Position numbers and translations under genes: made by a program
Shown here: positions 5,090 through 58,971 of the stretch, in pieces
How the letters are laid out: each line of letters begins with the position of its first letter
How positions within the stretch are numbered: the first letter of the stretch is position 1
The notes under the pieces: model-generated
What the model was told of the DNA's origin: nothing
Seen by the model: only the letters and a program-made list of their open reading frames with translations
Database searches by the model: none
Source: Prorocentrum cordatum
Taxonomy: Eukaryota
Reading direction: 5' to 3'
Assembly (NCBI GenBank): GCA_963575745.1
Contig: CAUYUJ010000315.1
Coordinates: 1 to 64,000 of the forward strand
DNA: 64,000 nt

Positions 5090-5960
5090 ACCAATGTAAA
5101 CGCATTACTCATCAACGATGTTTCAATACACCTTCCCTCCAAGCTCCCTCTTCATAGGCCCCAACAAAGGTCCATTCCCACTGAGGGCAATGCCACATTG
5201 GGGGACAACCGTGTGAAAATTCTGAAGGGTGGCCAAAAAACCATTCGCAAGGCTTCAACTTCAAGAGTGAACCTGACTAATGCGTCTTGACGATCCCGAA
5301 CCGTGCCAGAACATCTTTTCTGGGACTTCAACACCGCGAATCAACGTGTACATGTTGGGACCTGGCAACCTGGAATTGTTCCCAAACATAATTTCTGGTA
5401 CGTTGACCATGAGAACAAATAGAACTCTTGCAAATGTTTGAAGCGAATGTGCGCGGCGCCGAGGCGAGAGTCACATGTTGAAAAGGGACCACCCTCAATT
5501 CGTGAAGCTCTTGCAAATGCAGGCGCCAAGGCGAGAGTCACATTTTGAAACCACCCGCCCTCAATCCGCGACACTTTGGCCAAATTTTAGAATTCATGCG
5601 CGCGGCGCTGAAGCAAGAGTTGCATTTAAAAAAACGAACCACCCTCAATCCGTGAAGGTCTCGCACAATGTTCGAAATAATGTTCGCGGCGCTAAAGCGA
5701 GAGCAACGTTTTGAAAACCACCGTTCCCCAATCCGTGAAACTCTTGCAAATTGCATATGTTTGGAGCGGATGTGCGCAGCGCTGAAGCGAAAACCACATT
5801 TTGGAAGCGACCCGCCCTCCAACTGTGAAACTGCTGCAAGCTTTAAGCTTGACGCTCACAACTGGTAAGGAAGTCTCGACCGAAACGCCTGGCCCGCCCT
5901 TGCGACTGGCCTCAGGGTGCGACAGGATGAAATTATTCGTTAAAACGGAAAAGGAATGGA
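5090..5960 (+). repeat. Dispersed repeat family A, copy 1 (unique head plus ~82-bp tandem subunits)
   Basis: Head CTCATCAACGATGTT...CCACTGAGGG is shared with the copies starting at 24670 and 35085. It is followed by units like GCGCGGCGCTGAAGCGAGA..CACATTTTGAAAACCACCCGCCCTCAATCCGTGAA and ends in GGGTGCGACAGG. Confidence 0.85.
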
Positions 5961-8065: not shown

Positions 8066-8240
8066 TGCAAAACCCCGAGGAGGGTTCTGCACGGGAGCCT
8101 GGTAACAATGATGATGATCGGTCACCTTTATACTCCCGCACGGCGAAGCAAGTCTCAGTAGCTTCAGCCGTTAAACACTTGAGCCAAAGGCAACAGGGTT
8201 ACTATTCCTCCCCAGTCACCTGAACGCTTGCATGTTAACA
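8066..8240 (-). repeat. 3' LTR of copia element
   Basis: TGCAAAACCCC...CATGTTAACA, 174/175 identical to 18614-18788. Confidence 0.97.
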
Positions 8241-8250
8241 CCCCCCCCCT
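8241..8250 (-). other. Polypurine tract (PPT)
   Basis: CCCCCCCCCT on + reads AGGGGGGGGG on -, immediately upstream of the 3' LTR. Confidence 0.9.
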
Positions 8251-8650
8251 CGGACGCCAGTCCGCACTGGCTGACGGGGAGGTGTCTTCAAACGTAAAGA
8301 CAGGTTAAACCAAGCAACGTGCTGCACACAAATCGTTATATTGCCGAATTCGAAAGATCTCGTGACAACGTTTACGAGCACCACGTTTCTCAGACATGCA
8401 ACATGAGCTCAAGTAAACGTTCTTGCAGTCACAAGTTTAAGCGTAGCATCCAAAGTTTACACGGCAGGCTAGCATTTATATGATTTTGATGGTTTTCGCT
8501 TTTTATTCGCCAATACCTGCAGTAACTACAAAAGATGCACATGCACACAGATTCAGCTCAACAAGCCACTGCAACACGATTGTTAAGCCGAGTTAAGAGG
8601 GGAGATGAGGAAGAGCGTAAAAGAACAGCATGCCGGTCACCAGTCTCCGT

Positions 8651-11083
8651 TTACGAGCGGCGCGGGCGCCTCACTGACGGGGTGCGTGCGCCCCTGGACC
8701 TCGGTAGCCCACGGTGCCCCACACTGGCCGCTGTGTAGGACGACACCCTGTTAAGGGCCTGCATCGGGCTGTAATAGTCGGTGTCCAGGTACGCGTTAAT
8801 CCGCTCCTCGTCGTCGAGCCAGCACCCCTCGTCAAAGCTCTTGATGGACCCGTCAACAATGTTGTGGTAGGTGCCGATGGCCCTCCAGTAACTGGCGTGG
8901 GGAGCCTTCAACAGAGGTCTACCACCTGGATTGTTACGGAGGTGCTCCTCGACCGCAGCGCCGGTAAACGGGTTCACAGTCCAGGTCGGATCGGTAAGCC
9001 AGTTGGGGAAGTCGTCGCACGGTAACCATCCAAACCAGCAGAGCTTCTCACGATGGTCGCTTTTACGCTCGGTGATATGATCAGCAGGCCAATTGTCACG
9101 GTAAAGTGCCCTCATGGACCCCTGATCGTTAAGAGCGACATCTAAGATGGTCTGGTGCCAGTAGACTGGAGGCCTGTTGATGCTGCCCTTTAACTCCTCG
9201 GCGCTCCTGACCTCGAGGTCCTCGATGAAGTAGTTGCGGTAATGCACCTGGAGCCCGTTCATGTAACGGCAATAGAGCTTGGCAAGGTCAGGCGTCGCAA
9301 ACCGAATTACGGTAACTCCAGTCGAGATGTAACCGTGCGGCCCATAAGTGTCTTCCACCAGGTGCTTAACGGAGACCACGGTGGGGTTGCCGTGGGGCAG
9401 CATCCCTGCCCACGTTAAGAGAAGGCCGTTAAGCTGCTTCTCGTTCATCTCCGGCACCTTGTTGACGTACACCTGTGTGTCCGGGCAACTGTGGACGTCA
9501 AACCACGATGGGTGAAGATCGTCAACGTGGAGTGGTGGCACGTATTCGTCGTCAAACAGGGACTGTACGTGCCCAACTGCGTCAGCCCCCCACTCGTCAT
9601 GCTTGGCCAACTCCTTCTCCGTCAACTGAGATCTCCAGCTGCTCGGGCCCTTCAACACGGAGTAGCCGATGAAACCGTAAGCGTGTTGGCCGTTGATGTC
9701 AACGAACACTTCATCGTAGTCGTTAAGCTCCCGCCCCGTGTTGCCTTGAATATACCGACCACCAGGGGTCGTTAACCCCGCCTTCGCCACATGCCCGACG
9801 AAGTTGCCCTCAAACCTGCGCCAGTTGTCGCGCGTCTTCATCGTTAATGCGACTACTTCCCTGGGGTCAGGTTCCGCCTTGTAGTTAACGTCGTGGTCCT
9901 CGCTCCTGTCGTTCAGCATGGGCATGTGGCCGTTGACGTGGTACAGTGGGTGGTACACGGCCCTGGCAACGTTCCGAGAGTATGCCGCAAGCTGGTCGTT
10001 CGTGCGGTTAACAGCTTGAGGCTGCGGTGGCGGTATGTGCTGGGCCGATAACTTCTTGGGCTCCGGAGGCGGGGGCTTCATGCCGCTAACGCTGCTCGAT
10101 GCACTTGACTCGCCAAGCCCCGGAGGAGGCGGCTTGGGCGCCCTCGCGTTCACAACAGGGGCAGGACCTTTTGGTGCTTCGTCACGTTGACTGCTCTGCG
10201 CACGATCTTCCTCCATCTCCATGCCGATCTGCAGTAACTCTTCCAATTCCCGTTTACGCTCATGCATGGCCTTTGGTGCTTTCTTGTAAACAGGTTGCGG
10301 CACCGTTGACTGAGGGATCTTATTCGGCGACATGGACCGACCGAACCCTCCGGTCTTGGGTGTGGTGCCGGTAAGATCCTGAGCCGGGGGCGCGCCCGAG
10401 GCCACGGACTCGGCCGCCGCGGTGACGGCAACGGGTGGCGCCTTGGCGATTGCTGCCGTTGGGGGCAGGTCAGGTAACGGCGGAGGCACCTGCGGGATGA
10501 TGGTAGCCGAGGAACTGATCGGGTCATTCAAGAACCTCTGTAAACCTTCAAGTCTCTCGGTAACTCCCACCAACATGCGTAGTGCCGCATCCCGTTTGCC
10601 CTCGAAGTCCTGCAGGGGCGTGATGTTCTCGGTGAGGCGTCTGGCGGTGTTTAAGAGGTAACCAATGTTCTCGTTGATGCGCCTGTACTTGGTCGCATTC
10701 TCCGTCGTGTTAACCTCCGAGTCACGATTCTTGATGTTCATCTCCGTAATCGTCGCCATCAGAACGTTAATCTCGTCTTGCGCCCCCTTGAGGTTCTCGT
10801 TGACGTCGTCACTGGCGTGGATCAACGCAGCGTTCTGCCGCGTTAAGTCCTCGATCCTCTGCGCCATGTCGTCGGCAGCCCTCTGCGCCTCGTCAACGTG
10901 TTTGTCGTAGGCCCCGTGAAAGTTAATCGCCATGTTAGTGAGGGTCACGGTAAACGCGTGGGCAACGTTGACGATGTCGTCAACACGGCGATTGAGGTTC
11001 TCACGCGTAACCGGTCCATCCCCAGGCGGGCTCTGGTCGACCACGGAGCCGTTGATGGTGAGGTTGACCTGATGAGCCGCCAT
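8651..11083 (-). CDS. Copia accessory ORF3 (~810 aa): N-terminal coiled coil, Pro-rich linker, predicted RRM, Trp-rich C-terminal region
   Basis: Uninterrupted non-repetitive ORF between the pol stop (11171) and the PPT. First ATG at 11083 (the track starts at TTG 11107). RRM-like pattern QVYVNKVP...GVTVIRFATPDLAKLYCRYMNG...LEVRSA at ~9195-9480. The ORF is well supported; the domain calls are inferred. Confidence 0.85.
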   Translation of the reverse strand: MAAHQVNLTINGSVVDQSPPGDGPVTRENLNRRVDDIVNVAHAFTVTLTNMAINFHGAYDKHVDEAQRAADDMAQRIEDLTRQNAALIHASDDVNENLKGAQDEINVLMATITEMNIKNRDSEVNTTENATKYRRINENIGYLLNTARRLTENITPLQDFEGKRDAALRMLVGVTERLEGLQRFLNDPISSSATIIPQVPPPLPDLPPTAAIAKAPPVAVTAAAESVASGAPPAQDLTGTTPKTGGFGRSMSPNKIPQSTVPQPVYKKAPKAMHERKRELEELLQIGMEMEEDRAQSSQRDEAPKGPAPVVNARAPKPPPPGLGESSASSSVSGMKPPPPEPKKLSAQHIPPPQPQAVNRTNDQLAAYSRNVARAVYHPLYHVNGHMPMLNDRSEDHDVNYKAEPDPREVVALTMKTRDNWRRFEGNFVGHVAKAGLTTPGGRYIQGNTGRELNDYDEVFVDINGQHAYGFIGYSVLKGPSSWRSQLTEKELAKHDEWGADAVGHVQSLFDDEYVPPLHVDDLHPSWFDVHSCPDTQVYVNKVPEMNEKQLNGLLLTWAGMLPHGNPTVVSVKHLVEDTYGPHGYISTGVTVIRFATPDLAKLYCRYMNGLQVHYRNYFIEDLEVRSAEELKGSINRPPVYWHQTILDVALNDQGSMRALYRDNWPADHITERKSDHREKLCWFGWLPCDDFPNWLTDPTWTVNPFTGAAVEEHLRNNPGGRPLLKAPHASYWRAIGTYHNIVDGSIKSFDEGCWLDDEERINAYLDTDYYSPMQALNRVSSYTAASVGHRGLPRSRGARTPSVRRPRRS

Positions 11084-11170
11084 GCTTTCGTTCACGCCCA
11101 AGAGCAAGAGGTAATGGGTGGAGAAGGCTTTTATCGAGGCAGCTTGCTTGACAGAAATGAGCTGCGAATG

Positions 11171-12800
11171 TCAACATTCGGTAGCCGGCGCAAGACCATG
11201 CCTACCTGTTAATGCACATTGATTCGTGTTTCGTAGGTGTGCGCTCATGCTCTCACGACTGACATACTTGGTTAATGCATCAGCTGTGTTCTCATGTGTT
11301 CCTACTTTCACAATACGAAGTACTCCCTCCTTTACCTTTTGCTGTAACCACAGTTGACACACTTCAATATGTCTCACTTTCCCCAAACCTCGTCTGCTCG
11401 CAATGGCAATCGCAGCCGTGGCATCACTCTTCAGGGTGATCTCAGCTTCCAGGTTAAAATCTCTCAGCACTGCCTGAAGTCCTAGACCAACCGATCCTCC
11501 TTTTACAAGTCCATCATATTCTGCTTCCCCTGACGATAATGCAATCACACTTTGAGTTGTGCTCCAAGACTTTATAAGATGTTTACCCCACATCACTACT
11601 CCTCCACTCGTAGACTTCCTAGTTCGCTTACATCCTGCGAAATCCGTGTCAGTCCAAATCGTTAATTCTCGGGGCTGTTCCTGATATTGGTACACATAAC
11701 TGCTTCTGCTGTGGTACTTTAAATACTTTCCTAGCTTGACCAGACCTTTCCAAGAACCCATTGTTGGCTTTGACATGGTTCTAGCAAGCTCCTTTACTGA
11801 ATACTGTATGTCTGATCTGTCTTGAGCTAAATAATTCGCTCTGGCCGTCAATGCCTGATACCTCTTAGTCATGTTGGACGAAAGTTCCACCTCATCTCCC
11901 TCTTCAACTGGAATACGCTCACCTGGTACCTCAGTCCTCACTTCTACTCCCTCTAACTCAAGCTCTTTCACAATTATCTCTGCATGCCTTTGATCTGCCT
12001 CATATCTTAACCCTTCCTCAGTCCATTCTACTATCCTGTTAAGAATCCTGATCGCTTTCATGTCCTCCTTTCCTGGTCCAAGTCGTCCTCTCACTTTTAC
12101 TTCAAACTCCTCCTTTATTGTATTTTCAAACCAATCGAGATCATGGTCACCTCCTAATAGCGCGAAGTCATCCCCATGAACCGTCAACCATAAGGCTCGA
12201 ATCTCATGTTTGAATACGCGCGGTGACGCAACTCCACTCTTAAACCCAACCTCGATAGCAAAGTCCATGTAACAGTCTTCCCAATTGCTCGCTGCGTCCC
12301 TTTTTCCGTACATTGACTTTAATAGTTTTCCGCACATGCCTGGTTCATAATCCTCGTCTGGTAATCTGATGAATATGTCTTCCTTTGCCGGAGCGTAAAA
12401 GTAAGCTCGTTTAGTGTCAATGAATGCCAGCTTTAATCCTTTCTCGCGCTCGCCATTCGTGAATCCAACTCCTTCGGTAACTGCCATTGAAAAAAAGCAG
12501 TTTCTGTGCCTCCAGTGGAGGTGTAGCCGCAAATATATTCTTTTCCTTGGAATTGTATTTAACCTGCTGAGCCACTAGCCTTGACCTATGGTCTGGGCTT
12601 GACTCATCTCCTTTGTTAATGTCTATCCACCTGGTTCCGATGGGTGCCTTCCCCGTAACTTGCCAGCACACTTCCTCTTTCACTTTCTCGTACACCTTGT
12701 GTTTTCTGAATTGTTCCATTTCTTCTTGGCGTGCTGTTACAGTCTGTTTAGGATCAAGTTCGTTTCCAGTAACATCGTCCCAGGCTTGAGTTATCTCTCC
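11171..12800 (-). pseudogene. pol: Copia reverse transcriptase plus RNase H (frameshift at ~12490 in a T run)
   Basis: RWIDINKG..RSRLVAQ, DTKRAYF, KSMYG, VHGDDF (RT); WTDTDFAGC..RKSTSGG, LSSGEAEY, ADALTK (copia RNase H). Confidence 0.95.
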
Positions 12801-13314
12801 ATTTTCCTCGTGAACAACGTTGGTCATATTCATGGGGAGAGGGTTAACTGTACCAATTCTTTCACACGCCGCACAGGTGCTGGGCGTCTTGAACCAGCCT
12901 TCATGTTCACATGCACTGCATTTCCACTTGTGTGGAGCAATCTCGCCAACAGCCTCATACGTAAAGGTGGTGGAAGTGTTAACTGGTCCCTTCTTGAACA
13001 TTCTCCTTCTCTCTCTCCCTGTGGTTTCGTTCACGGGCCTGTCCTCGATAACCTTCCCCGTGTCTATGTCAACGGTAAGTCTCCTAATGCATGAACTCCA
13101 TTGTGGTCCATTTGGTCCTGGCAGCATCAATCTTTGAGTTCCATAATCCTTTCTCGTCCACGTTAGCTGGTGTTTGTGCTTTCTATCTTCGTTCGCACGT
13201 TCACATGCCCAGTTAGTCTCGCTTATCTGCATTTCACTTTGCTCCTCTTCGTCAACTTCCATGTTTGTTGCTTCTTCTTCTTTAAACGTACCCCCTTGGC
13301 GTCCGTCAATCTTC

Positions 13315-13975
13315 ATTTGTCGCGCAAGCCCTCTCAGTATCGCTCGGCACAATTTGTCTGGGTAAACTTCTGATCTGTGAGTTCTTCCGCCACCTGTTAA
13401 CTCCATGTGTCGATGTTGCCCTTTGCATCTCCAACTTAACTCGCGACCTATGGCCGGACTGTTTGTCATGAACTTGGTCGGTTTCTTAATGAACATCTCT
13501 TCACCTTTGACCATCTGCTTTAAGTCGTAACAGCACAAATCTCCATTGTAGACTTTAACATCTTTGTTCCTGAGCAACCGTTGCACTGTTGAAGTACCCC
13601 AACTGGTCGCCCCCGCGGGGTGTTCAAATAGAAAGTATAAACCATTTCGCCGTTGAATTTCGCAAAGCTCCATTGCGAACGTCAAATGCTTGATCCCGTA
13701 ATCCAATATTTGTTTTACTCGGTCAGTGCCTAATCTTTTAAAGTTGAACGTCTGAAGTCTGCTGAAAGCTGCGCACATGGGGCTCACCACCAGTAACAGG
13801 GCTGCTTTGGATTTGACGATCTTCTTCGCTTTCGCTCGCATAGCTGGCACATTAAAGTCCCATGGGTTACCATGTTGATCACGTGTTGTTAAGTCCATCG
13901 CTAACCCCAGTATCAGTCCCATGTTCTCTGCCATTCCTGTAACTCTCACCGGCGAATATGCCTCGGTCACGTGCG
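13315..13975 (-). CDS. C5 cytosine DNA methyltransferase domain inside copia pol (part of ORF 12417-14384)
   Basis: Motifs in order: I-like EAYSP, IV SPMC (catalytic Cys), VI FEHP, VIII-like DLCCYDL..KKPT, X-like YPDKLCRAI. Parallels the DIRS DNMT at 35858-36605. Confidence 0.8.
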
Positions 13976-14409
13976 CCTGAGTTTCATGTTGACTAGCTCC
14001 ATAAAGCTTGGTGGCTCTCCTCACCTCGTTCAATTGACGCACGACGTTCAATTCCCCGCTTGTCAACCATTCAACCAGCTCAGAGTTAAATCCCACCATG
14101 CTAAGCCCCGATCTGATATCGTTCACTTCTGACATTTCTTCATCTTGTTCCGGATTAAGTTGACGATGTTGAGTTGCCTGTTGATCTTCTTCGTCATGAT
14201 CACCCTCTGCTTTTCGTTTGATGGGTTCACTTGGGGGGTCTTTCATTTCTTCATCTTCCACTTCAAACTCGGTCCATCCGGTCCAGTAACCGTTCAAGGG
14301 GTTTCCCATGGCCCATGTTTGGTCATCTCCCTCTTCACCATACCAAGCGTCTTCGTGCTCATGTATCTCACCACTGTCAATCATGATGGCATGGGTAAAT
14401 CTTCTGGGT

Positions 14410-16041
14410 TTAAGTTTGTCCCAATCTACAGGACATCCACCATTGGTGGGAAAAGCTAACTCTTTTCTTGGTCTCCGGTGTTGACATATAACTTTGTTTC
14501 CTTTTTACTACCCACTCATCCTTTGCTTCCTCAACTTTAGCGCTCGGCGGAGGTGGCGCGTTGGTCCTCAGTCTTTTCGCTTGACTTTCTAATTCTTGAT
14601 TTTGATTTTCCGGCGCACGGCTTTTACTTTCGAGTCTCAGTTGGGCAGATGCTAGCCTTGCCTGGATGTTTGGGCTCTCTTGTTTCTTTAACCACTCGAT
14701 AACCCGAGTCCTGCAATCAGCGTTATGTGGTTTGTGCTCTTTGTCTCCTCTAACGAGACATTTGCATCCGTAACATCCCGGCGTCGGTCCCATTTTTAAA
14801 TATTCATGCTTCTTTACAGCGATTCCTCGTGCAATAAGCGGCTTCGTCTCAGGTGCAGTTAACTCTTGCTCTGGAAAATCCATGGGTACCATGATTCTAG
14901 ACTGTAATTCCATTCCCGCCGTACTGGGGTCAGGCTGCCAAGGTAAGCCCTTCATCTCGGTGATCTCGACAATGTTCCATCTTTCCGCCTCACTTCCTTT
15001 TCGCTTAAACTCGTGCGCCTTGATTGCTCCATTTGGTGTCCCAATAATCAACTCCTGACTCTTCTCGTTTATCCCCAAAAACACTCCACTTTCCCATCTC
15101 ATTTCAAGCTTCTCGCGGCCCTTGTGTGCAGGCGTCTTTAAGTACATGACGCATTCGCCAAATTCAGGAATTTGCTTATTAAACTTTCTTCCCCTGCACC
15201 TCTCATGGGCTGTCTTCCCATCTGTGTCTATCGTGAACTTGTTAATCAGAGAAGACGCATAGCTCACCAGCCATGGTATTATCGGGTGACTCTCACCAAA
15301 CTCAGTCTTATAATTGGCATCCAAGGCGCTCTTTAACGTTCTGACTTGACCCTGCACCGTCCTGACAGCCCTCTCGATTTCACCGTTGGCCTTTGAGTCA
15401 CCTACTGGACTGACTTCAACACCCATGTCAAGGTCACGCGACGCTTTAATTATGTTGGCCAGTGCTGTGATTGCCGCTTCTCCATCACTTTTGAGTATAA
15501 CCTTCTTATATCCGGTAAACCTGATCATGTCACATCCCACCTTTACTGAGTATGAGTCCACTCCTTTTTTCATCAACGCTCTGCTCCATGTTAATTTGGT
15601 CTCCCTGCAATGCATGACCACAATTGGGTTGCCATTGCTGGCACTTTCACCTTCTTCCTTTTTTCCCTTAAGCCACATATAGTCCATTGAAATCACTGGC
15701 ACGTTTCCGTTCCCTTCTCTTTTGCGTCTACGGCGATTGCGCCTGCGTGCTTTTCCTCTAACACAATGCGGGCACCAGCTTCGGTAAGGTAAATGCGTCG
15801 TGTTATGCGTCTCAACTTCCTCCTTTGAGGGCCTCATGTCACAGTAAACTTTCTTCGGTAGCTCCGCTTCATCGCTCACAAATACATCTTCCACATCACT
15901 CAACTCACTCTCGTTGCCCCCACTTTCACTCCCTTCGTCTCCTTCGGTATTAAAGACGTTTAAGTTTTCGCTTGGTCTTACGGGTAATGGGGGGCTTAGT
16001 AGAACAGGTCCGCCTCCAGGGTTCCCGGCCGCGGAAAACCC
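14410..16041 (-). CDS. pol: Copia integrase (entered by predicted -1 frameshift; frameshift lesion near 14450 downstream)
   Basis: HNTTHLPYRSWCPHC zinc-binding motif and DDE core MDY / KSDGE / NGEIERAV. The frame opens exactly at GGGTTTT (16035-16041). Confidence 0.93.
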   Translation of the reverse strand, partial: GFSAAGNPGGGPVLLSPPLPVRPSENLNVFNTEGDEGSESGGNESELSDVEDVFVSDEAELPKKVYCDMRPSKEEVETHNTTHLPYRSWCPHCVRGKARRRNRRRRKREGNGNVPVISMDYMWLKGKKEEGESASNGNPIVVMHCRETKLTWSRALMKKGVDSYSVKVGCDMIRFTGYKKVILKSDGEAAITALANIIKASRDLDMGVEVSPVGDSKANGEIERAVRTVQGQVRTLKSALDANYKTEFGESHPIIPWLVSYASSLINKFTIDTDGKTAHERCRGRKFNKQIPEFGECVMYLKTPAHKGREKLEMRWESGVFLGINEKSQELIIGTPNGAIKAHEFKRKGSEAERWNIVEITEMKGLPWQPDPSTAGMELQSRIMVPMDFPEQELTAPETKPLIARGIAVKKHEYLKMGPTPGCYGCKCLVRGDKEHKPHNADCRTRVIEWLKKQESPNIQARLASAQLRLESKSRAPENQNQELESQAKRLRTNAPPPPSAKVEEAKDEWVVKRKQSYMSTPETKKRVSFSHQWWMSCRLGQT

Positions 16042-16475
16042 TCAGCTGCGTTCACTTCACTCCTGGGATTGACAGCTTCCGCTGGCCCCCTCGGCACTGT
16101 GATGTTGAACTGAAACGTGCCGTTCTTCTCGTGGATAGTTGTGAATTTACCTGTGGCCTTATTCATGATGTGGCTCAGGGACCTCCCGCTAAGATCCTTG
16201 TCAAACACAACTCTATTTCCAGCGTTTACCATTTCTCTGACGGATCCCAGAACTTTGTTGACTTCCGCTACCTGGATCGGCATACTGACTGCGTTCCCAT
16301 GTTCATTTTTGCCCGTGATCACTCGTTGACCATAATTCTTTATCGTTGTCCCAGTCGCTGCGCTGCAATGCCTTCCCTGCTTTGACGCATTCGTATGCTT
16401 AATGGGGAAATGGGTGCCAACCTTGGGGGGTCCCACTGTATTATACGCCCCAGAGTCCACGGTAACCAGAGTCCA
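15996..16475 (-). CDS. Copia aspartic protease
   Basis: TLVTVDSGA active-site motif and downstream VLGSV..MVNAGNRVVFD. Separated from the gag frame by an apparent 1-nt lesion near 16475. Confidence 0.9.
   Translation of the reverse strand, partial: WTLVTVDSGAYNTVGPPKVGTHFPIKHTNASKQGRHCSAATGTTIKNYGQRVITGKNEHGNAVSMPIQVAEVNKVLGSVREMVNAGNRVVFDKDLSGRSLSHIMNKATGKFTTIHEKNGTFQFNITVPRGPAEAVNPRSEVNAAEGFPRPGTLEADLFY
16035..16041 (-). promoter_or_regulatory. Predicted -1 ribosomal frameshift site G_GGT_TTT with downstream stem-loop
   Basis: X_XXY_YYZ heptamer in phase with PR. The -1 frame has TGA immediately upstream and runs without a stop into integrase. Hairpin CCGGG-AAC-CCTGG begins 6 nt downstream. 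Confidence 0.8.
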
Positions 16476-18592
16476 CTCAGTGGCGGCACCGCGTTAATTT
16501 CTGGATCACAGTCCCGCATCTCAATTAGCCCAATTTCTCTGCATTTCTCTAGCCAACTTTTTTCCTGTTTTATGCTTTTACTTATCCTCTGGTCCCATTG
16601 ACTCACATGATTACAATCTCCGTTGCATTGATGCTCCTGGTAAATTCTTTTCAGACTCATCGCAGTGTTACGCGCCTTTTTCTTTCTGGCATATGAGGGC
16701 AGATCCCATTGCCCGTTCACCTCCTCAGTTGTGAGTGGGTCCAGTGGCACGTTCACTGCGTCCTTCATCTTAACGCTGAGAACATGTTGCGGTTGGCCGA
16801 ACGAGGTGGTTTGTTCACTTTCAGCGTTCATGGTAGGTCTCTCCTGTTCAACTTCGTTGGCGGTCTTCTTGGAGCCCGGGCAGTTAATGGCGATGTGCCC
16901 TTTGGCACCGCACTTGTAACACTCGCGCTCGCTATGGGGGGTGAATTTTCCTTGGCCTCCATAACTTCCACCCCACGAGCCACTTCCTTTACCACCTTAT
17001 TCACCGCCGATCTTACCTTTCACGTAGGATCCGTAGGTGGCCCGGTAACCCTTGCCTTTTCCGCCTTTGCCACCTTTACCTCCTTTGGTAAACTGTTTGG
17101 GTCTTGTGCAATTTCTGGCTAAATGACCCATGCCTCCACAATTGTAACATTTGGGGCCCGCGCCTTTACCTTTGCCTTTGTTTACGGCGTCAACTTCTTC
17201 ATGGTCCCCACTGTCACTCTCATTGGCCCAGGACCCGTAACTCCACGATCCATCTTCTGGCCACCAGTTTCCGCCCTCGTCAACCCATCCTGTTTGGTCC
17301 CAAACATTTTCGGACCCTTGACCCATCTCGTTGATGTTCCCAATGCCCATCGCATCTTTATTTGTTGTGTCTGAGTCGAGTTTCTTTTTACGCGCCCAGT
17401 CTTCGCACTTGGAGTATAACTTCTGGAATGAGTCAATGTTAAGCGCGTCGGGCGTTCGCCAGCACGCCTGCTGCCATTCATCAAACCAATCGTTCGCATG
17501 CACCATTATTGCCCTGAGTGCGGTGACTTTAAAAGGAAGAGGCAGCGAGTAATCTTTACCGTGCTTTTCAAGGTTTTCTGCCAATGCGCTCCACTCCTCA
17601 AGTCGGGTAACGGTGTCAATAATCTTCTTGGGCGGCTCAGGGTTCATGGCGTGCGTCATCTTTGATGACAGAGTCGCTCCAGTAACAGCCGAGTACCATG
17701 TGTATACCTTTTGCCAAGCCATGATTCCATCTCCATCCATAAGTCCCTTTAAATTTCCTCTTGCTTCTGCACCTTCGAGCTTCTCGTTGAGAATGTACCA
17801 TAAGTCTTCCTCCATTTGAGTTTTGTCTCCCTCGGTAAACTCGTACTCTCCTTTGTTGTCATCCTCTGCTTGTTTAGCTGAATTCGCCTTCAAGTATTCG
17901 CTTGCTGTTAATCGGCCGTTCATTATACGTATGATGTCATCATCGTCCTCCTCTGGTACAACTCCGTCGAGCGTCTCCAACTTCTTGTTTAGCATTTTCA
18001 GCGCCGGTCGGTAACTCGGTTTTACTTGGGCCAGTGCGTTTAAGAACTTGTCGTTCCAGTCTCTGAACTTTGCTCTTTCTCCACTGAAGTTCTTTAACGC
18101 CTGTAATGCCTTATATTCGCTTATCGGTTTACCGCTCCCGTGCTTGCTTCCACTTCCTCCTTTAATTGCTTCCGAAAGCTGACCAAATGTTTCAATCAAC
18201 TTTTCTTGTACCTCACTGTTGGTCTCCAACTCGGTGACTCTTTCCACCAGTCTGCGAGCATCCCTTTCAAGTGCAGCATTTCTTTTCGTAATCGCTAACA
18301 ACACGCTGTTGGTCTTATGAGCACTCTGTAACATTTGGAATGCCTCGGCGTTCGATACCTCCCTTCGGTCCTGTGTCACTCGCTCGTTGATGAACGTTGC
18401 GAGTCCGAAATGGTTCGCGAGTAACGCTGTCTGAACATAACTGAAGTCTCCGTTCAGGTATGCCTGCTCACACAGGTCGTTGAAGCGGTTAGGGTCCATG
18501 TTGACCCATGCGTCTCTGTCTGCCGGCACATTGAGGTTAACCGGCGGGTCGCCCTGCCCAGGCCTAGCTGCAGCGGCCGCCGCCGCCGCCAT
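16476..18592 (-). pseudogene. gag: Copia gag with two CCHC zinc knuckles (in-frame TAA at 16997-16999)
   Basis: ATG 22 nt after the 5' LTR. CYNCGGMGHLARNC precedes the TAA and CYKCGAKGHIAINC follows it in frame. ORF 16340-16831 is in the same frame. Confidence 0.9.
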
Positions 18593-18595
18593 GGC

Positions 18596-18613
18596 AACCG
18601 CGCTCCGCTACCA
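18596..18613 (-). other. Primer-binding site, initiator tRNA-Met type
   Basis: TGGTAGCGGAGCGCGGTT directly abuts the 5' LTR and resembles the canonical TGGTAGCAGAG iMet PBS. Confidence 0.85.
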
Positions 18614-18788
18614 TGCAAAACCCCGAGGAGGGTTCTGCACGGGAGCCTGGTAACAATGATGATGATCGGTCACCTTTATACTTCCGCACGGCGAAGCAAG
18701 TCTCAGTAGCTTCAGCCGTTAAACACTTGAGCCAAAGGCAACAGGGTTACTATTCCTCCCCAGTCACCTGAACGCTTGCATGTTAACA
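18614..18788 (-). repeat. 5' LTR of copia element
   Basis: Direct repeat of 8066-8240 with TG...CA termini. Confidence 0.97.
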
Positions 18789-24669: not shown

Positions 24670-25610
24670 CCTGTGTAAACCGAAGACTCATCAACGATGT
24701 TGGAATACACCCTCGAGCTCCCCTGTCGCAGGCCTCTGCAAGGGTTCTCTTCCACTGAGGGAACTGCCCCGTTGAACAGTCTGAAAATTCGGGAACGCGC
24801 CCAAACACCATTCACAGGACGTCAAATCCACGAGTTCAACTGACTGTTACGTCTTGGTAATCTGTTACGTCTTGGCAATCTTGAATAGTGCCAGGACGCG
24901 ATCGCAGGGACTTCAACACAACCAACCAACGTAATTGTTACGCCCTGACATTCCTGAATCGTTCCACAACATCACCTATGGTACGTTAGCCGCGAGAATC
25001 AATACAACTTCTGCTTTATCTGAACGTATGTCCGCGGCGCTAAGGCGAGAGCCACATGTTGAAAAGGAGCCGCCCTCAATCGGTGAAGCTCTTGCAAATT
25101 TATAAACGAATAAGCGCGGCGCTGAGGCGAGAACTGAATATTGAAAGCGAACCGACGCCAATCCGTGAATTTTTTGCAATGTTTAAAACGAATGTGCGCG
25201 GCGATACGGCAAGAACCACATTTTGAACACGACCTACACGCAGTCCGTAAAACTCGAGCACATGTTTAAAGCGACTGTGCACGGCGCTAGGGCGAGAGTC
25301 ACATGTCGAAAACCACCTACCCTCAATCCGTGAAGGTCTTTCAAAAGTTTAGAACGAGTGTGCGCGGCGCTAACTCGAGAGCTATATTTTGAAAACCACC
25401 CGCCCTCAATCCGTGAAGCTTTTGCACATGTTTTTAACGAACGTGCGCGGCGCCACGGCGAGAGCCACATTTTGAAAACCACCCGCCCTCAATCTGCGAA
25501 TCGGTTGCTATTCTTTACGCTTGCAGATCATCGCTGCTGAGGGAGTCTCAATCGGAACGCCCAGCCCGCCCTTTCGACCGGCATCCGGGTGCAACAGGGA
25601 GGAGTTGCTT
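24670..25610 (+). repeat. Dispersed repeat family A, copy 2
   Basis: Same head and tail as 5090-5960. Subunits recur at ~82-bp spacing (about 25033, 25115, 25197, 25279, 25362, 25445). Confidence 0.85.
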
Positions 25611-26269: not shown

Positions 26270-29200
26270 GGGCACGAAGCTCGGCGAGCAGGTCGATCTG
26301 CGGCCTCGCCTATGCTTGCATGCGGTGCAGAGCGGCCAGTCTCACACCAGACCGATGATCCGCTCCGGCATCCAGGCCCACGTCCACGCGGTTCTTCTGG
26401 ATGTGGTAGCACTGGCACATGAGGCCGACCGAGTAGATGCAGTCCGTGATCGGTCTCCTTGCGTGGAACTGCGCGTCGCCGAACCCGAGGAGCTCGACGC
26501 CGTGGCCCAGGGAGTCCGCGCCAGCGTCTCCCGCGGTCATCGCCCTGAGGATCGGGCAGACGATGTAGTGCTCGAGCGCGTCCTCCTCATCGCAGCCGAA
26601 CAGGCATGGACGCGCATCGATGACGGCGCTCATGCGGCGAGATGTCGTCCAGCCGTTGACCGCGGTGCGGATCCACGACCACATCCATGAAGGGCGGACC
26701 TCCGTCAGCTTGTCACGCAGCGGAGGCCACCTCTCGCGCAGCTCGGGAAGCGAGCACGCGACTCCCCACCTGCGCAGCCGACGGTGGATGGTGGCCACCA
26801 GGTCCTCGGGGTACAGCGAGCCTCGGAGCGATATGGCGGCCGTGGCCTGGCGCTTGGGCTTCCTGTTGGGGATGGCCGCTGCCGCCGCCTTCGTCTCCAG
26901 GGTCATCGCCGCCTTCGCAATCTTGATGTACCTGCTCGGAATCGGGACCGGGAGCACATCGAGCGTCGGTCTGGGGATGTTCAACTGGCCGTAGGTGTCC
27001 GTGATGATGGCGAAGTTCTGTACGATCGCCCTCCGCGTCTGCCACCACGGCGGCGACCAGTTGCCCTTGATCACGTCGACCAGTGGGACATGCTCCACCG
27101 CAGCTTCATGAAGATGGTGAAGGTGAGCTTCCCATTCGCGAACCGTGTTCTCCGCCGTGCGCATCGTCGCCGCGAGCGTGTACGGGAAGAGGCCCGTCGG
27201 CGAGGGGGAGCCGCACCACGCGCTCATCGACAGGATGTCGGCCTTGCGCATGGACGAGGGCGGCAGCCGCAGCAGGCGGTGCAGGGAGGTGAACTCGACC
27301 TTCCAGATGGCAGGCACAATGAAGTAGAACTGCGCGAGGTACGACAGGCACGGTAGCGCGTTGATGTTGCACGCGCGGGCCGCAAGGCTGGTGGCCATGC
27401 CAGTGCGCGCCAGTTCCCAGCAGCGGGTCCACCATTTCCCCGCAGCAGCCTTCCAGATGCCGAAGTCTGTGACGCCTGGTCCCAGGTGAGTCCCCGGTAC
27501 TTGGCCGTGGAGTCGACGCGGAAGCCCGACCAGCGGGGGACCTCCTCAGCGAGGAAAGACTAAACGTCCTGCAGTGTGTCCTCCGAGAGCTCCTCCCACA
27601 GCGGAACCAGCGCGCACTTGTGCAGCGCCAGCTGCAGGTTGAAGGCAAACTCTATGGAGACGAAGGTGTAGTCGATGCTAGGGAGGGCGACAGCGTTCTT
27701 GATCAGCATCCCGAGGTCGTCGGCGCAAGCCGTGAGGAACCCATGCTCTGCAATCGCAACCAGCAGCGCGCGGATGGGCGCGTCCATGGCCAAGCACCAG
27801 ACCGTGCCAGAGAGCGGGCATCCTTGCATGATGCCGCATAGGAGCGCGAACAGCGGCTCGAACTCCGCGCTGGCGCCCTCGGCGCGGAAGGAGCTGAAGG
27901 CGAGGCAGTTGCTGTAGAGCGCCGCGACCACGTTGCAGAAGCCCAGCGGGACCCCGAAGCGCGGGAGGACCTTGTCGATGACTTCCCTGAAGAGTGAGGG
28001 GAAGGCCTGACGGAAGTCGAACGACAGGAACATGGGGCGGCGGGTCGCCGCGTCAGGAAGAAGGCCCCCCCGACGGCATTCCGCGTCCAGGTACGGGATG
28101 TGGTCGACGAAGCGCCGCCCAGCAGTGAAGCCCTTCTGCTCGGGTGAGGTAGATGATGTGGCGATGGGCTGGAGCCCGCGGTCTGCGCAGGCCGCTATCA
28201 GCTTGGCGTCGCAGTTCTTCAGAGAGAGGGTGCGCACCGTGGAGGCCGTGCGCGTGCAGGAGTCGGGGACGTCGTCCTCCTCCGTGCCCTTTGGCACGCA
28301 GATGAAGATCGACCAGTTGAGGTCGAGCGGGGCCACGCCGTCGTTGAAGAGGACTCCCATGAGACCCTGGAGATGCTGCAAGGCTCCAGGGCTGCGGCGC
28401 CACGCTGCGTACGACAGCTGATCTGGTCCCGCAGCGCTCGGCGGGGCCCTACTGGCCGCACGTTCCAAGTCATGTAGAGCTGGTTGAGGTAGTTCCACCG
28501 CGGGCTTCCTTGGCGCGTGCTTGTCCAGGAAAGCGCCCAAGGCCTTGAGCTGTTCAGAGTTCGGCACCTTCGCGAAGATCTCACCCCAGTAGTTCGCTAC
28601 GGTCGCCTTCATGCCCGCGGGATCGGAGACCACGCGCTGAGCCACCTTCGAGTCCTTGGCGGCACACGGTGCGGAGTCCACGCGCAGGCCCGACAGGATC
28701 ATACGTCGCCGCCACGGGACCCAGAGCTGCGCATGCCTGGCGGCCTTGCGCTCAACCCTCCGCCAGGCTGCGCTGTCGCGCACGTTGGCCGTCCGAGCTG
28801 CTGCCTCCGCCGCCTGCCTGCGCAGGGAGTGCACCCGCTCGGCGACGGCATCGAAGTTGGTGGCGAAGCTGTGGGGGTCCACGAGGCGCACGGTGCCGTC
28901 GGCAACGTGGAGGTGGGCGGCCAGCGCAGGGCAGGACTCGAGAAGCCTGCCTGCCAGGGCAGCGTCCTGTCGCCAGACAGCCCGCGCCGCCGACTTGAAG
29001 CCCATGTACGAGGTCTCGACCATGGAGTCCTTGACGTGTAGGGAGAAGTTGGTCCGCAGCTGGTCATCACGAACGCGTCGCGCTGCAAGTTTCATGCACT
29101 GCTTCGCTGCTCTCCAGCGGCCTTCCGCCGTTTCCCCCGCCAAGGAGCAGTGGTCCAGCATGAGCGTGTAGGTCTCAGGGTACTTCCTGTGGTTGAAGAG

Positions 29201-29440
29201 GTGCGTCGGGATTGGCTGCTCGTCTCGTGGTACCTGGCGCGCGGCAGTGATCTGCAGGACGAGGGGCGCGTGGTCGCTGATGCCCTCCTCGGAAAGCTCC
29301 ATCGCGTCCCTCGCAGTGGTGAGGATCGTCGAGACCGAGAGCATGGCGTGCGCGTCGATGCCCAAGAAGATGCGGTCGATCGTGGACAGCTGCTTGCTGG
29401 ACTTGTCGTAGTGGGTCGGCCACTGAGACTCCACCTCCAG
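26270..29440 (-). mobile_element. 5'-truncated LINE (non-LTR retrotransposon): end of APE endonuclease, RT, C-terminal zinc finger; disrupted
   Basis: TIDRIF..SDHAPL (APE C-terminus); GPDQL, RTLSLKNCDAK, DFRQAFPSL, GIMQGCPLS, CADDL (RT); CLFGC..LEHYIVC. Stop at 27560 and a frameshift near 27495 split ORFs 27560-29434 and 26310-27398. Confidence 0.92.
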
Positions 29441-29516
29441 AGCTGGAGGAGGAGGAGGAGGAGGAGGAGGAGGAGGAGGAGGAGGAGGAGGAGAAGGAGG
29501 AGGACCAGTGGAAACA

Positions 29517-32500
29517 GCCGTGGCCTTGGCTCAAGTACGAAACCGTGGCCCGGCGGCTTCGTACTCGTCCGCTGCCAATGGGGCTGGCCCCAGGCCGGCC
29601 GCCCTCCAGTGGCGCGGGCCTTCCCGGTCCTTTCCCCTTCGCTCGCTCAGGGAGGGCCCGCTTTGGCACCGCCTGGCCGCCACGGCCGGGGCAGTCCGAG
29701 GGGGCCTCGAGGAGCAGGGGGGACGGTGGCAAGGGCAGGGCCTGCAGGGGCAGAGGAGGGCGCCCCGCTCCAGGACGCGGCGCCTCCCCGCCAGCGCGGC
29801 GGCCCGAGCCCAGCGGCCCCCCCTGGCAGTGAGGCGTCAGCGTTTCTCGTGGGAGCGTGCTGGATGCAGTGCCAGTCGTGAACCTGCGTCGCCCGCGGTG
29901 CTGGCGGCGTGGGCGACACGGGGAAGCACCGGGCTCTTCCCGGGCCCCGTCGCACGCCAGGGCGGGCAGCACCATCGGGGACGAGGCGAAGATCGGCCCG
30001 CGGATGTCCCGGCTGCCAGCTGCCAGCAGTCCCTGGACCTGCTCAAGGGCACGGGGGGCAACGCTGAGTCTGCGACCTCGGACCTGCAAGCCAAAGCAGC
30101 CACTGAGGCAGCGGAGGCAGCGATGGAGCAGCTGCGGGCCGAGCGAGATTCAGGTAAATAGGAAAATCGACTATTTCGAGCACGCTGCAGTCGTCCGATT
30201 CGTGTTCAGGAACAACCTGAGCAACAGCGCAGACACGCGGAAGAACAAACGGCGGCCCTAGCGGACATTTGTTGCTCAGCATGTACTCCTGGCGGCAGAC
30301 CTCGAGGCTGCAAAGGAGACGCAGGCTGAGCTTGAGGAGAAGGTGCAAGAGCTTCATCGCAGCGCCCCTATACGATCCTTTATATGAACGCACCGCCTAG
30401 GCTCATGGCGCCGTTCCACACCATGGAGTTCGGAGGCAAAGGAGCGGCCGTGGTAGCAATGAGTGGCATGCAGTCTGGCAGGGACCTCGACAGATGCTTC
30501 GCTGGGCTCAACTACCCGCCTTGCGCACCGCCCTGCACGACCACATGGCGGCCTTCGCGGGGGCTGAGAGGGCTGAGGCGAAGGTTCCTCCGCCACCGCC
30601 GCAGCCTGAGGAGCGCGCCAGGGCAGCCGCCGCAGCAATGGGCCTATAGAGGAGGCCGAGGCCGCGGCCGCGCCGGCAGACGCGGTCACGCCGCAGGCGC
30701 CTACGGCCGAGAGGCGCTCGGCGGAGCAGGCGGAGCTCGAGGCTGAGGATTGCCCTGCGAGGACTGGGACCGGGTAGGCGGCGGAGGCGGCGAATCCGCC
30801 GCCAGGGCAACACTCAGCATGACTGCGAGAAGGGCGGCCAGCTCGTCATCCAGACGGCGAATGCCAACTCGTGGAGCACGGCGGCTGCCCCCACATCGTG
30901 GGCTCTTCTGCACGCACTGTACCAGTTCACGAACATGAGCTTCATGGTCAGCTTTTGTTGGAGGCCAAGGGGCACCTCAGTCGGCAAGGGTGGGGCAACT
31001 TTTGGGCACCGCGCATTGTCGCTCAGCGTGCTGGCAAGAGTGCTGGAGTCTGCATGTTGGCGAGGTCTCATCTGGATGCTTGGCAAACTCATTCGGGCCC
31101 CGTCGAGATCTGAGGTCAGAACCATCCAGTGCTACTTCAGGAGTGAGTCCTTGGGACAGATTCCGATAGTGTAACTATTGGAAAGATTGCGTCGGCCTCG
31201 GGGAACAGAACCTTCGGCTGGCTCAGTGTCGTCTGGGAAGAGATATCCCGAGGAGGAAATTACCGCTTGTGTCCCGAGAAAATCGCAAACTGGAGCCTCA
31301 TTTGTTTCAGAAAAGCTTGCGCCTCACAAGGTGAGCGGTAAGTTGACGGTGCCCTCACCTAGGCAAACTTGTCTTTCCGGCACGCCAAGTCGTTGCTAAA
31401 ACTATTTCTGGTCAACAAGAACTTGCTGCTAGGCATTGAGTCGGTCGAGACCGACATGCACGCGGATACGCAGATGTGTATTCCCGCATCGCCCCGTCAG
31501 GCTGAAGTTTCCCAGAAGGCTCGACCAAGTGACGGCTCAGAGGCTCCTGAAGTACCAGAAGCTCCCCCTGCACCTCCTCATGGGACCCGCTCCTCATGGC
31601 CCGAGTTATTCGCATGTCGCTGAGTCTCTGGTGGCGCTCTTGGAGCCCTCTGCTGTTCCTGGAGGCGTTCAGGTTCCTGCAGAACGTTAGCGCGCAGGTC
31701 TCCAGGCTCGGCCTTTCTACCAATTGAAGCCAGCTTCCTGAAGCGCGCGTGATCAGGCAGCCGTTGTGGTTCTTGCATTTGACGATGAACCCCAAAATTG
31801 GGCATCAATCGTATTCCGGTTTACATGTGGAAAAAATCGCAGCTGCGCCGGGCATTCGGATTTGATTCGCGGTGAGGCTGGCTTTGCTACTTGGCATGAG
31901 CGGTGGCGCGAGCTGTCTCGCGGGGGGAACTTCGCAACGAACCTCGAAGCTTTCCAGGAGGCGGGCCAGGGGGCCCGCCGTGCATGACGGACGAGGTCCC
32001 CATGTCCGAGCTGCTCTGCCACAAGCGCCCCCCCCCCGCCCCAGAGCCCGCGCCGTGCCCTGAGATGGTTGTCGCGCAGCGCCGTGCAGAGGTGTAGGCA
32101 TTTACTCAAGCATGAGAGAGCCAACGCAGTCGCAGTGCATACTACTCTGACTTGGCCAGGGCCAGCTGCAAGGCATCAGCCCGAGGTGGCGCCCTCAAGG
32201 CCCGCTTCCCTGGATGCCGCGAGTTCTGGTGCGGCTGTTTGAAGGCTGCGCTGGTCTCACTCTGGAAACCCTCGAGGCTCGACTCGGCGCGGCCTGCCCC
32301 AGCCTTGGTCAGAGAGCTTGCAGATTGTGGCAGACCACTTCGCCACTGAGCGCTTGGCTCGGCAGAGGGCCGATAGATGTAACAAGTGGAAGGATTGGTG
32401 CCCTGAGGCGCTGGCAGGTGGTGCGAAGTGGGCTCGCGCCTATACGAAGGCGGCCAACGACCGCCAGCTGGACATCCTGCCAGCCTCGGACGGCATCGAG

Positions 32501-38200: not shown

Positions 38201-39551
38201 GCCCACGAATCTCCCACCCCAGGATGTCGGCGTTATGATCACACATACAGACCTCATGAGTGGGTAACCCTCTGGACGTCAAGGCTGCGTTGACGAGCTT
38301 CACAGCGCGGGAAACGGCCTCGGGATCTGTACCCAAGGCGAGAAAATTATCCACATATACGGTCATCGCCAGTGGCTGCACCGGCGGCGCTACACTCTTG
38401 TCTGAAATGAACGGGACGTCGAGCAGCGCGGGGATGGAGCTCACGATCCCGCGGTGAATGGTCTGGCACCAATACAGCGCATGCGACCAGCCCATGGGCA
38501 GCACCGCCAGGACTGGCCACACACGGCTGCCCGGCGCGAGGGACCTTCCACCTAAGACACTCAGCCCCATATCACCTGCCTTCACCGCTGGCAGCGTGAA
38601 GTAGTCCCGAAAAGCCTCCGGCAATCCAAAGTGATAGAAAGCGTCGCAGATATCCACGTGACCGACGTAGAGCTGCTCTCCCTCTGGCACGGCTAGCTCT
38701 CCAAGTGCAGAGCCCGTCGCCAGCGCGACTGTCGAAGGCCTCTTGAACCAGCAGTTAGCCCGTCGGCAGTCAATAACCATGCGCTGCTTGCCAGACTTCT
38801 TACGCACGAAGAAGAGGCCGCACCTCTCACGTGGCGCGGCAGAGAAAGTCACCATCCCCGCCGCATGCAAGCGCCGCACCAACCCAGTATAGGCATGTGG
38901 CTGAGCGCGAAGGACAGCATCCATGTACGGCTGTCGCGGAGCCTCAGAGAGGTTGGAATCCGCATCCTTGCGTGGAAGGAGCTGCTCGTGTATTGATGCC
39001 TCGACATCTAGATCGCCCACGCCTGCAACCAGCTCCCCAAGCGGCACAGGCACGTTGCCGGCCTCGGGCAGCGAGACGAGGGAATCGTCGAAGCTGACGA
39101 CTGGCGAGTCGATGTCCTCGTACACGCCAGCACCGCGGAGCTCACGGAGGGCTCCTGCGGGAGTGAGGCCAGCTGGCGGGGGGCCCAGCGCGGCGGCAGC
39201 ATGACGAACTCGCTCATGTACCAAGCGATGGGGTAGCCGCTCCGCCAGGCCAGGAGCTCCGGGCGCCCCTGGCCGACCAGCCAGATCATTGAGGGCCCCC
39301 AGGGCGCGATTGGCTTCAGCCACTTGAGCGTCACGCCGCAGAAGCCGGCGCCGCACCGAGCGGTTCACCACGCCCTCTGCTGGAGCCTGGCCGTCCCGAA
39401 GTAGCGGGACAGGAAAAAAGTCTCGACGGTCTGGAACTCCGTCGAACTGAATTCGCCCAGGTAAGCATGCAGGAGAGCCCTTGGGCTCGGCGGCCTTGAA
39501 GCTCGAGAAGGAGGCGGCCGCCTTCAGGCCTCCTTCCCGCGACGCCGTCAT
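38103..39551 (-). CDS. DIRS reverse transcriptase (frameshift into RNH at the (GA)5 run, ~38191-38200)
   Basis: FFVRKKSGKQRMVIDCR, DICDAFY, LPMGWSHA, YVDN, ILGWEI. Confidence 0.93.
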   Translation of the reverse strand: MTASREGGLKAAASFSSFKAAEPKGSPACLPGRIQFDGVPDRRDFFPVPLLRDGQAPAEGVVNRSVRRRLLRRDAQVAEANRALGALNDLAGRPGAPGAPGLAERLPHRLVHERVRHAAAALGPPPAGLTPAGALRELRGAGVYEDIDSPVVSFDDSLVSLPEAGNVPVPLGELVAGVGDLDVEASIHEQLLPRKDADSNLSEAPRQPYMDAVLRAQPHAYTGLVRRLHAAGMVTFSAAPRERCGLFFVRKKSGKQRMVIDCRRANCWFKRPSTVALATGSALGELAVPEGEQLYVGHVDICDAFYHFGLPEAFRDYFTLPAVKAGDMGLSVLGGRSLAPGSRVWPVLAVLPMGWSHALYWCQTIHRGIVSSIPALLDVPFISDKSVAPPVQPLAMTVYVDNFLALGTDPEAVSRAVKLVNAALTSRGLPTHEVCMCDHNADILGWEIRGRERDSTKEIKAVEASHGARLSYKQGRGESKRS

Positions 39552-58825: not shown

Positions 58826-58971
58826 GGCCTGCGCAGGCTCGTGGTGTGTGCCTCCGACGCTCCGAGGTGGGGCGGACCACCTCGGCGCTCGCCCTGGGGC
58901 TGACCAGGGGAAGGAATGCAAACTGGCCGCGGACTAGCGGTATCCACTTGTTCCCCTGCGGAACAAAGCAT

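Follow-up and report, generated by a model that had tools for sequence, protein, structure and literature searches.

Both long terminal repeats (LTRs) of a retrotransposon of the dinoflagellate Prorocentrum cordatum contain a sequence derived from the spliced leader (SL) of the host. The element was found in a stretch of 64,000 nucleotides (contig CAUYUJ010000315.1 of assembly GCA_963575745.1, positions 1 to 64,000; hereafter, the window), where a Ty1/copia-type LTR element of 10.7 kb occupies the minus strand. Comparison with related elements from other samples indicates that the SL-derived module is a built-in, maintained part of the LTR in a copia-type clade, the members of which share one primer-binding site (PBS). 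LTR retrotransposons depend on an RNA with identical sequence at its two ends, a requirement threatened by leader replacement through trans-splicing; the module probably helps the element to copy itself in a cell that re-caps its mRNAs. More specifically, we propose, with a probability of about 0.5, that the module forms the start of the repeat (R) region of the LTR, and that the element RNA owes its terminal redundancy to SL sequence.

The 20-mer CCTGTTGCCTTTGGCTCAAG is found in the sense orientation at positions 44-63 of both LTRs (Table 1). Its edit distance to the 21-nt dinoflagellate spliced leader (DinoSL) is 4, accounted for by a one-base insertion, one substitution and a 2-nt deletion common to the two LTRs, and its last 11 nt, TTTGGCTCAAG, match the SL exactly. 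An SL-derived motif of this kind, identical to the SL in its last 11 nt and located 44-63 nt into a 175-bp repeat, is what the original prediction, made from the letters of the window, had described, and all of these points hold. The same prediction called the LTR very short; the length of 175 bp is correct, but short only in a relative sense, since related LTRs measure 148-287 bp. Three sites in the window match the 11-mer exactly: one in each LTR and one in a complete DinoSL at 58972-58992 (-). When one mismatch is allowed, the number of matches increases to five, compared with 1.22 expected, and 0/100 shuffles reach five. Of 20000 dinucleotide shuffles of the LTR, 44 align locally to the 21-mer SL with a score of 22 or more. 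Sites at an edit distance of at most 4 arise at a rate of 0.11 per simulated 64-kb window; at least one was present in 15/150 simulated windows and at least three in 1/150, while the actual window features three independent sites, the third of which is located at 29515-29535 (+). Judged on the window alone, the match to the SL is suggestive. It becomes secure once other elements are considered, because the module recurs in related LTRs from other samples.

These LTRs were identified by scanning metagenome contigs for the last two LTR bases (CA) followed by the PBS, a pattern from which the module was excluded. Of the 36 loci obtained, ten are related to the window element at the protein level (L005, L010, L015, L016, L017, L018, L021, L024, L030 and L032), with amino-acid identities of 31-53% in the reverse transcriptase (RT), 29-44% in the integrase and 23-28% in gag. 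The ten loci correspond to eight LTR types, the flanks of which are otherwise unalignable, and all have the PBS 16-mer TGGTAGCGGAGCGCGG directly after the LTR end. Their GC content ranges from 0.47 to 0.66, a spread suggestive of other hosts. Within 500 nt upstream of the PBS, the best SL match is in the sense orientation in 10/10 loci, lies 20-52 nt from the PBS and has an edit distance of 1-6, and matches reach 20/21 identity. The core TTTGGCTCAAG, with up to two mismatches, is present in 9/10 loci, always in the sense orientation and 30-52 nt upstream of the PBS, and its end coincides with the end of the SL exon. In contrast, 1/68 unrelated control loci carry the core: 0/22 other metagenome loci, 0/25 loci of viral contigs with the PBS 16-mer and 1/21 loci of prokaryote genomes with an 18-mer. 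The viral-contig and prokaryote-genome matches are unrelated phage or bacterial loci, and gag and RT protein queries against the viral contigs detected no relatives. The count is 0/4 in LTR-like loci that have the same PBS and no coding similarity. The positional conservation in other LTR families that the original prediction had named as a test is therefore observed. One locus, L002, fits the pattern as an LTR end but was rejected, as it turned out to be a locus of bacterial type, with genes for an aminotransferase and an ABC transporter.

Six of the ten related loci display the order pol, polypurine tract, LTR, PBS, and the LTR bounds are clean in five, which have LTRs of 148, 175, 176, 184 and 287 bp and the module 30-42 nt from the LTR end. 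This order and these bounds show that the module belongs to genuine LTRs, 148-287 bp in length. L010 and L032, the modules of which read CCGTTGCCATTTTGGCTCAAG and CCGTCGCCATTTTGGCTCAAG, respectively, have LTRs that differ at only two sites in 176 nt, and both differences fall in the module (one at position 5, the other a 1-nt indel at the end). The contigs of L016 and L030 open with the same 47-nt string, which resembles an adapter of tagmentation libraries and represents contamination of the contig ends rather than biology.

The shape of the conservation was analysed in an alignment anchored at the module end and including nine LTR types (the window element, L010, L015, L016, L030, L017, L021, L005 and L024), of which L010 and L015 belong to one family. 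L032, a near-duplicate of L010, was excluded, as were the uncertain L018 and the family lacking coding similarity. The most common base accounts for a fraction of 0.94 at SL positions 11-21, compared with 0.49 at positions 1-10, 0.46 in the 24 nt before the module and 0.46 in the 20 nt after it. Similarly, the core has a mean pairwise identity of 0.89, compared with 0.27 for the flanks, and ungapped mismatches to the SL, summed over the nine types, amount to 53/90 at positions 1-10 and 6/99 at positions 11-21. The conserved stretch terminates precisely with the final base of the SL exon. The dinucleotide that follows the module is TG in the window and GA, AA, GC, AC, TG or CC in related LTRs, but never GT. 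The module is therefore a copy of the spliced product, and an origin from the SL RNA gene is ruled out, as no GT intron start follows.

Within the module, the window element and 9/10 loci lack the internal AG of the SL; they feature GTTG, GTCG, GTGG or a degenerate sequence instead. In the window, similarity to the SL extends upstream of the internal-AG position, and the AG itself is mutated. We rejected the possibility that a modified SL base gave rise to the GTAG change, given that GTAG is intact in the full relic at 58972-58992. Conservation is strongest for GGCTCAAG, present in 8-9 of the nine types, compared with 7 of 9 for the T run; for instance, L005 and L030 have lost TTT(T/G) but kept GGCTCAAG. 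A variant that departs from the SL, CCGTCGCC, is common to several families.

R is a short region located between the unique 3' (U3) and unique 5' (U5) regions of an LTR; present at both ends of the genomic RNA, it guides the first strand transfer. The analysed LTRs share a layout that opens with a variable stretch, 92-236 nt long in most and 43 nt long in the window; the SL module comes next, then a short tail with an A run at its end, a segment of approximately 18-35 nt, and the PBS. The tail is marked by the motif AAAA+(C/G), found 2-18 nt after the module in 6/9 LTR types, compared with 0.87 expected from shuffles, of which 0/5000 reach 6; the motif is present in 0/9 equally long upstream control segments. 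AAAACAG is common to three families, and L021 has only AAAC after the module. In the available text of Bachvaroff and Place (PMC2488372), AAAAG/C is reported to coincide exactly with the poly(A) site in Amphidinium, Karlodinium and Lingulodinium, and trans-splice acceptors are described as having no consensus beyond AG. The layout may thus be read as U3, R and U5, with the module opening R. The U3/R boundary that the original prediction had suggested, here taken to lie at the module, fits both the exact stop of conservation and the poly(A)-like motif that usually comes after it. The CAG of AAAACAG was considered as an acceptor and rejected: splicing at this site would delete the bases between the module and CAG from the progeny, yet they are present.

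According to the model that we favour, the element RNA would begin with SL sequence, either because a real SL is trans-spliced at the AG of the module end or because the module itself is transcribed, and the 5' ends of the two RNAs would be nearly identical in sequence. The RNA would be cut and polyadenylated shortly past the module of the 3' LTR. With SL sequence at both of its ends, the RNA would then have the homology needed for the first template switch during reverse transcription, an arrangement that would solve a problem posed by trans-splicing hosts, where the 5' copy of R would otherwise be removed by trans-splicing. The 5' half of the module would be inherited from the 3' LTR and drift, and a switch made prematurely, within the final 8-16 nt, would agree with a core anchored at the 3' end; such early switching is described for retroviruses. 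Since young copies are not restored to perfect SL, at most the SL-proximal 8-16 nt can be copied from, or need to pair with, the real SL, and full copying of the real SL in each cycle is not the rule.

Several observations weigh against the assignment of the module to R. L018 is the sole miss among the ten related loci, as it has kept the 5' half (CCGAAGCCATTTGG) but not the 3' core. The terminal AG of the module, the supposed acceptor, is missing in L015 and in L023. The latter belongs, with L004, L014 and L036, to the LTR-like family that has the same PBS, no similarity to copia proteins and no Pfam match, and these four loci contain at best a split remnant: CCGTCGCC is located approximately 120 nt before the PBS and is followed by approximately 19 unrelated bases and then by TTCAAG, an arrangement that may derive from a split module. 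The comparison LTRs are all of one PBS class and come from metagenome contigs. The order pol-LTR-gag observed in related contigs may reflect assembly collapse of two LTRs; the sequence is LTR whether or not the two copies were collapsed. Other points concern the window element itself. It is very young, yet its module is degenerate and identical in both LTRs, which implies that the last replication cycle copied no full SL. Moreover, the module lies 112 nt from the PBS, compared with 30-52 nt elsewhere, and has only 43 nt of LTR upstream. The only poly(A)-like run of this LTR is AAAG at +49, and a short A run is a weak poly(A) signal, the motif having been defined in other species.

The RNA might instead start at the module without trans-splicing. 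The SL look-alike would then be an encoded leader, kept for the mRNA machinery (export, translation, stability), R would consist of the module and the tail, and no real SL would take part in replication. Such a leader agrees with the finding that young copies are not refreshed to perfect SL. It also agrees with the variable middle of the module, which covers the internal AG and the T run, neither of which is needed in an mRNA leader; we take the T run to be the Sm site of the SL RNA. In addition, the available text of Bachvaroff and Place (PMC2488372) describes a gene with an SL-like genomic sequence precisely where the SL would be trans-spliced, such that a message could bear the SL without trans-splicing. 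However, the cap-proximal positions 1-10, at 0.49, are no better conserved than the flanks, no common promoter-like motif was seen upstream of the module, either in the alignment consensus or by eye, and in the window LTR the module has only 43 nt upstream of it. There is also no evidence of SL sequence alone conferring function, and we regard an encoded leader as rather unlikely.

A broader form of the favoured model, which we consider speculative and doubtful, would make the host SL the R region of a whole dinoflagellate LTR clade. Trans-splicing would generate the 5' copy, and the elements would need no promoter of their own. Since all host mRNAs would bear this R at the 5' end, cDNA of host mRNAs could jump by SL homology onto the 3' LTR and integrate. 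If true, this jump would provide a direct mechanism for the exceptionally heavy retrogene formation of dinoflagellates, the mediator of which is given as unknown in the available texts of PMC5585692 and PMC6050394.

It is improbable that the module is kept as a promoter box. A TTT(T/G) box was proposed for retrogenes by Song et al. (PMC5585692, available text), and the 112 nt that separate the window module from the PBS leave room for both a start site and R. However, the bases GGCTCAAG are better kept than the T run, and L005 and L030 retain them without TTT(T/G). Furthermore, most families have only 30-52 nt between module and PBS and a poly(A)-like run at 2-18 nt, such that a start site downstream of the module would leave no R.

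In its strict form, the mechanism of the original prediction would involve trans-splicing at the AG in each cycle, followed by pairing of strong-stop DNA carrying a complete anti-SL with the module of the 3' LTR. This scheme draws on the same conservation and position data as the assignment to R, but it is contradicted by the state of the modules, and we find it very improbable. A minus strand made from such strong-stop DNA would carry the real SL, and both new LTRs would be perfect; the young window copy has instead kept a module with four edits in two LTRs of 174/175 identity, which share the insertion, the substitution and the 2-nt deletion. Relatives also read GTTG, GTCG or GTGG, and the near-identical copies L010 and L032 still have GTTG and GTCG.

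A neutral fossil, left when an ancestral element copied an SL-capped RNA into its LTR and carried along since as a functionless remnant, appears highly improbable. SL relics are common in dinoflagellate DNA (available texts of PMC5585692 and PMC7245778), and the presence of CCGTCGCC in several families suggests common descent of the module. Nevertheless, the flanks have decayed to random-level identity (0.27) around a core at 0.89, and neutral decay would not spare one half of the module, as the 53/90 and 6/99 mismatches would demand. Finally, chance resemblance is practically negligible: support from the window alone is modest (44/20000 shuffles, 0.11 edit-4 sites expected per window), but the core recurs in 9/10 related loci, compared with 1/68 controls, at a fixed place and on a fixed strand, with up to 20/21 identity.

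Relic DinoSLs are known upstream of dinoflagellate retrogenes (Slamovits and Keeling 2008, via PMC7245778; Song et al. 2017, PMC5585692), and the internal AG of the SL serves as the acceptor at which retrogene relics are re-spliced (PMC5585692), as stated in the available parts of these papers. The LTR module resembles these relics in that it is SL sequence in DNA, in the sense orientation, that ends exactly at the SL exon end. In both cases, a sense DNA copy of the SL would have been left by reverse transcription of trans-spliced RNA, and the 3' part from TTTG onwards is best kept. Their positions differ. The available descriptions place retrogene relics at the 5' end of the retroposed gene, typically cut at the internal AG and in tandem stacks. 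In contrast, the module is single in each LTR, is located 43 nt inside the terminal repeat and thus at both transposon ends, has lost the internal AG and is conserved across families.

The module shares with the R region of retroviruses and LTR elements its position, a poly(A)-like site next to it and a distance of approximately 20-35 nt to the PBS. Ordinarily, R is specific to the element and set by its own start site, whereas here R would consist in part of a host leader, the 5' copy of which possibly comes from trans-splicing. The SL-like site of the host gene reported in PMC2488372 is also a DNA-encoded SL at the place where the SL is added, such that spliced and unspliced messages are alike; according to the available text, that case concerns one host gene and not the repeat of a mobile element, and has no role in replication. 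SmTCL1-4 of Symbiodinium microadriaticum (Chen et al. 2018, PMC5776459) and the copia transcripts of Oxyrrhis marina (PMC3942190) are comparable to the window element, being described in the available texts as Ty1/copia, approximately 10 kb in length, recently active and expressed. Unlike for the module element, these texts mention no spliced leader in or near the LTRs; in PMC5776459, supplementary sequences aside, neither 'spliced leader' nor 'trans-splic' occurs. The internal promoter Pr77 of trypanosomatid L1Tc/ingi elements (PMC1874656, PMC3383444) is, like the module, a device fixing the 5' end of retroelement RNA in a trans-splicing host. Pr77 elements, as presented in the available texts, are non-LTR, have unspliced transcripts and avoid the SL, whereas the LTR analysed here incorporates it. 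No description of an SL inside an LTR was found in the literature, subscription journals and supplementary files aside, nor in the available parts of the papers cited here.

A leader encoded in the LTR, at a fixed place and in families that are otherwise unlike there, suggests how retrotransposons may cope with trans-splicing, and provides a concrete model. For elements in which neither the U3/R boundary nor the poly(A) site is mapped, the module indicates where both are likely to lie, and it may be used as a sequence tag for finding such LTRs in dinoflagellate assemblies. It may also link the activity of copia elements to the large-scale retroposition of host genes in dinoflagellates.

The coordinates of the element are reported in Table 1. 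Its two LTRs are direct repeats with TG..CA ends, and the location of the PBS and of the polypurine tract beside them is that of a copia element. The G run of the polypurine tract varies by 2-3 bases among the contigs of X1, a sequencing run of undefined kind, in contig form, that resembles DNA of a multi-copy family. A search of the window for tRNA genes as a source of the PBS primer found none, and the window contains no further LTR copies. As a candidate 5-bp target-site duplication, GGAGG is present at both flanks of the element, but the insertion sits in a (GGA)n run, and a match is expected anyway.

Table 1 Features of the Ty1/copia-type element in the window.
Feature	Coordinates	Strand	Remarks
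5' LTR	18614..18788	-	175 bp, TG..CA, direct repeat with 8066-8240, PBS directly after
SL-derived module, 5' LTR	18726..18745	-	LTR positions 44-63; last 11 nt equal the DinoSL 3' end
AAAG within GTATAAAGG	18674..18677	-	LTR 112-115, 49 nt after module; also 8126-8129; weak
PBS TGGTAGCGGAGCGCGG	18598..18613	-	directly after CA of 5' LTR
gag frame	16997..18592	-	ATG at 18592-18590, CCHC zinc knuckle
Second CCHC knuckle, frame after gag	16340-16996	-	
Integrase frame	14410..16041	-	H-x3-H..C-x2-C and D, D(35)E readable
RT (RVT_2)	11171..12574	-	RNase H region behind
Extra 839-aa frame	8651..11170	-	between pol (RT/RNase H) and 3' LTR
Polypurine tract GAGGGGGGGGG	8241..8251	-	adjoins 3' LTR upstream
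3' LTR	8066..8240	-	175 bp, single mismatch to 5' LTR
SL-derived module, 3' LTR	8178..8197	-	identical to 5' LTR module

The coding order is gag, integrase and RVT_2 RT, and the location of the integrase upstream of the RT corresponds to the Ty1/copia order. The RT matches RVT_2 (PF07727) with 31.7 bits, compared with a cut-off of 31.6, and PF07727 is found in 120/120 RT homologues among the matches listed (800 with E <= 0.001). In the integrase frame, a weak match to SH3_retrovirus was obtained (E 0.0023), Pfam rve was not detected and a PDB sequence search gave no match; tblastn aligned the frame to the integrase regions of L021, L024, L010, L015 and L032. The 839-aa frame matches no Pfam family and has no tblastn match in the related loci, in which the spacer between pol and LTR measures only approximately 0.5-0.9 kb.

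Gag-pol is not intact, as the coding region is split into seven frames with in-frame stops. A total of 1318 X1 contigs match the element at an identity of at least 80%, which makes the element family multi-copy. Variants with 1-nt indels are found in X1 contigs at 14503, 16021, 16034, 16421 and 16425, all within the overlaps at which the frame changes. This element copy, or its assembly, thus differs from other family members at the frame-change sites, and the broken frames are either copy defects or assembly errors, which are indistinguishable here. Among the listed X1 variants on the element, none falls inside the module. Direct repeats flank the element in swapped order (7749-7919/19095-19265, 93% identity; 6350-6499/20255-20404, 83%), and may be part of an older repeat structure around the insertion site.

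Elsewhere in the window, the complete DinoSL at 58972-58992 (-), 22 nt long if the T before it is counted, directly adjoins the ATG of a 1682-aa frame (53938-58986, -) with a weak RVT_1 match. The frame runs via in-frame stops into 52654-53937 and 51625-52653, and (TCC)n is located directly upstream of the SL. This frame has the appearance of either a retroposed RT gene with an SL tag or a non-LTR element, and a complete SL abutting the ATG of an RT frame implies that SL-capped retroelement RNAs are reverse-transcribed in this genome. Genes with upstream SL relics are enriched for 'RNA-dependent DNA replication' in the available text of Song et al. (PMC5585692), which agrees with the SL-tagged RT frame of the window.

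The SL-like site at 29515-29535 (+), CCGTGGCCTTGGCTCAAG, has an edit distance of 4 and lies on the strand opposite to the neighbouring RVT_1 frame (27560-29530). The LTR of L018 also contains, near its 5' end, a 14-nt string from the reverse complement of CCGTGGCCTTGGCTCAAG. The window has four RT-encoding regions (8066-18788, 26310-29530, 35858-41062 and 51625-58986), all on the minus strand, and the three RVT_1 regions are not detectably related to the 1682-aa frame. The window has a GC content of 60% and, given this composition and its complete DinoSL, was taken to be nuclear DNA of a dinoflagellate. Arrays of repeats of approximately 83 bp are located at 5420-5840, 25001-25511 and 41583-41933, and (GGA)n/(CCT)n runs are abundant in the rest of the window.
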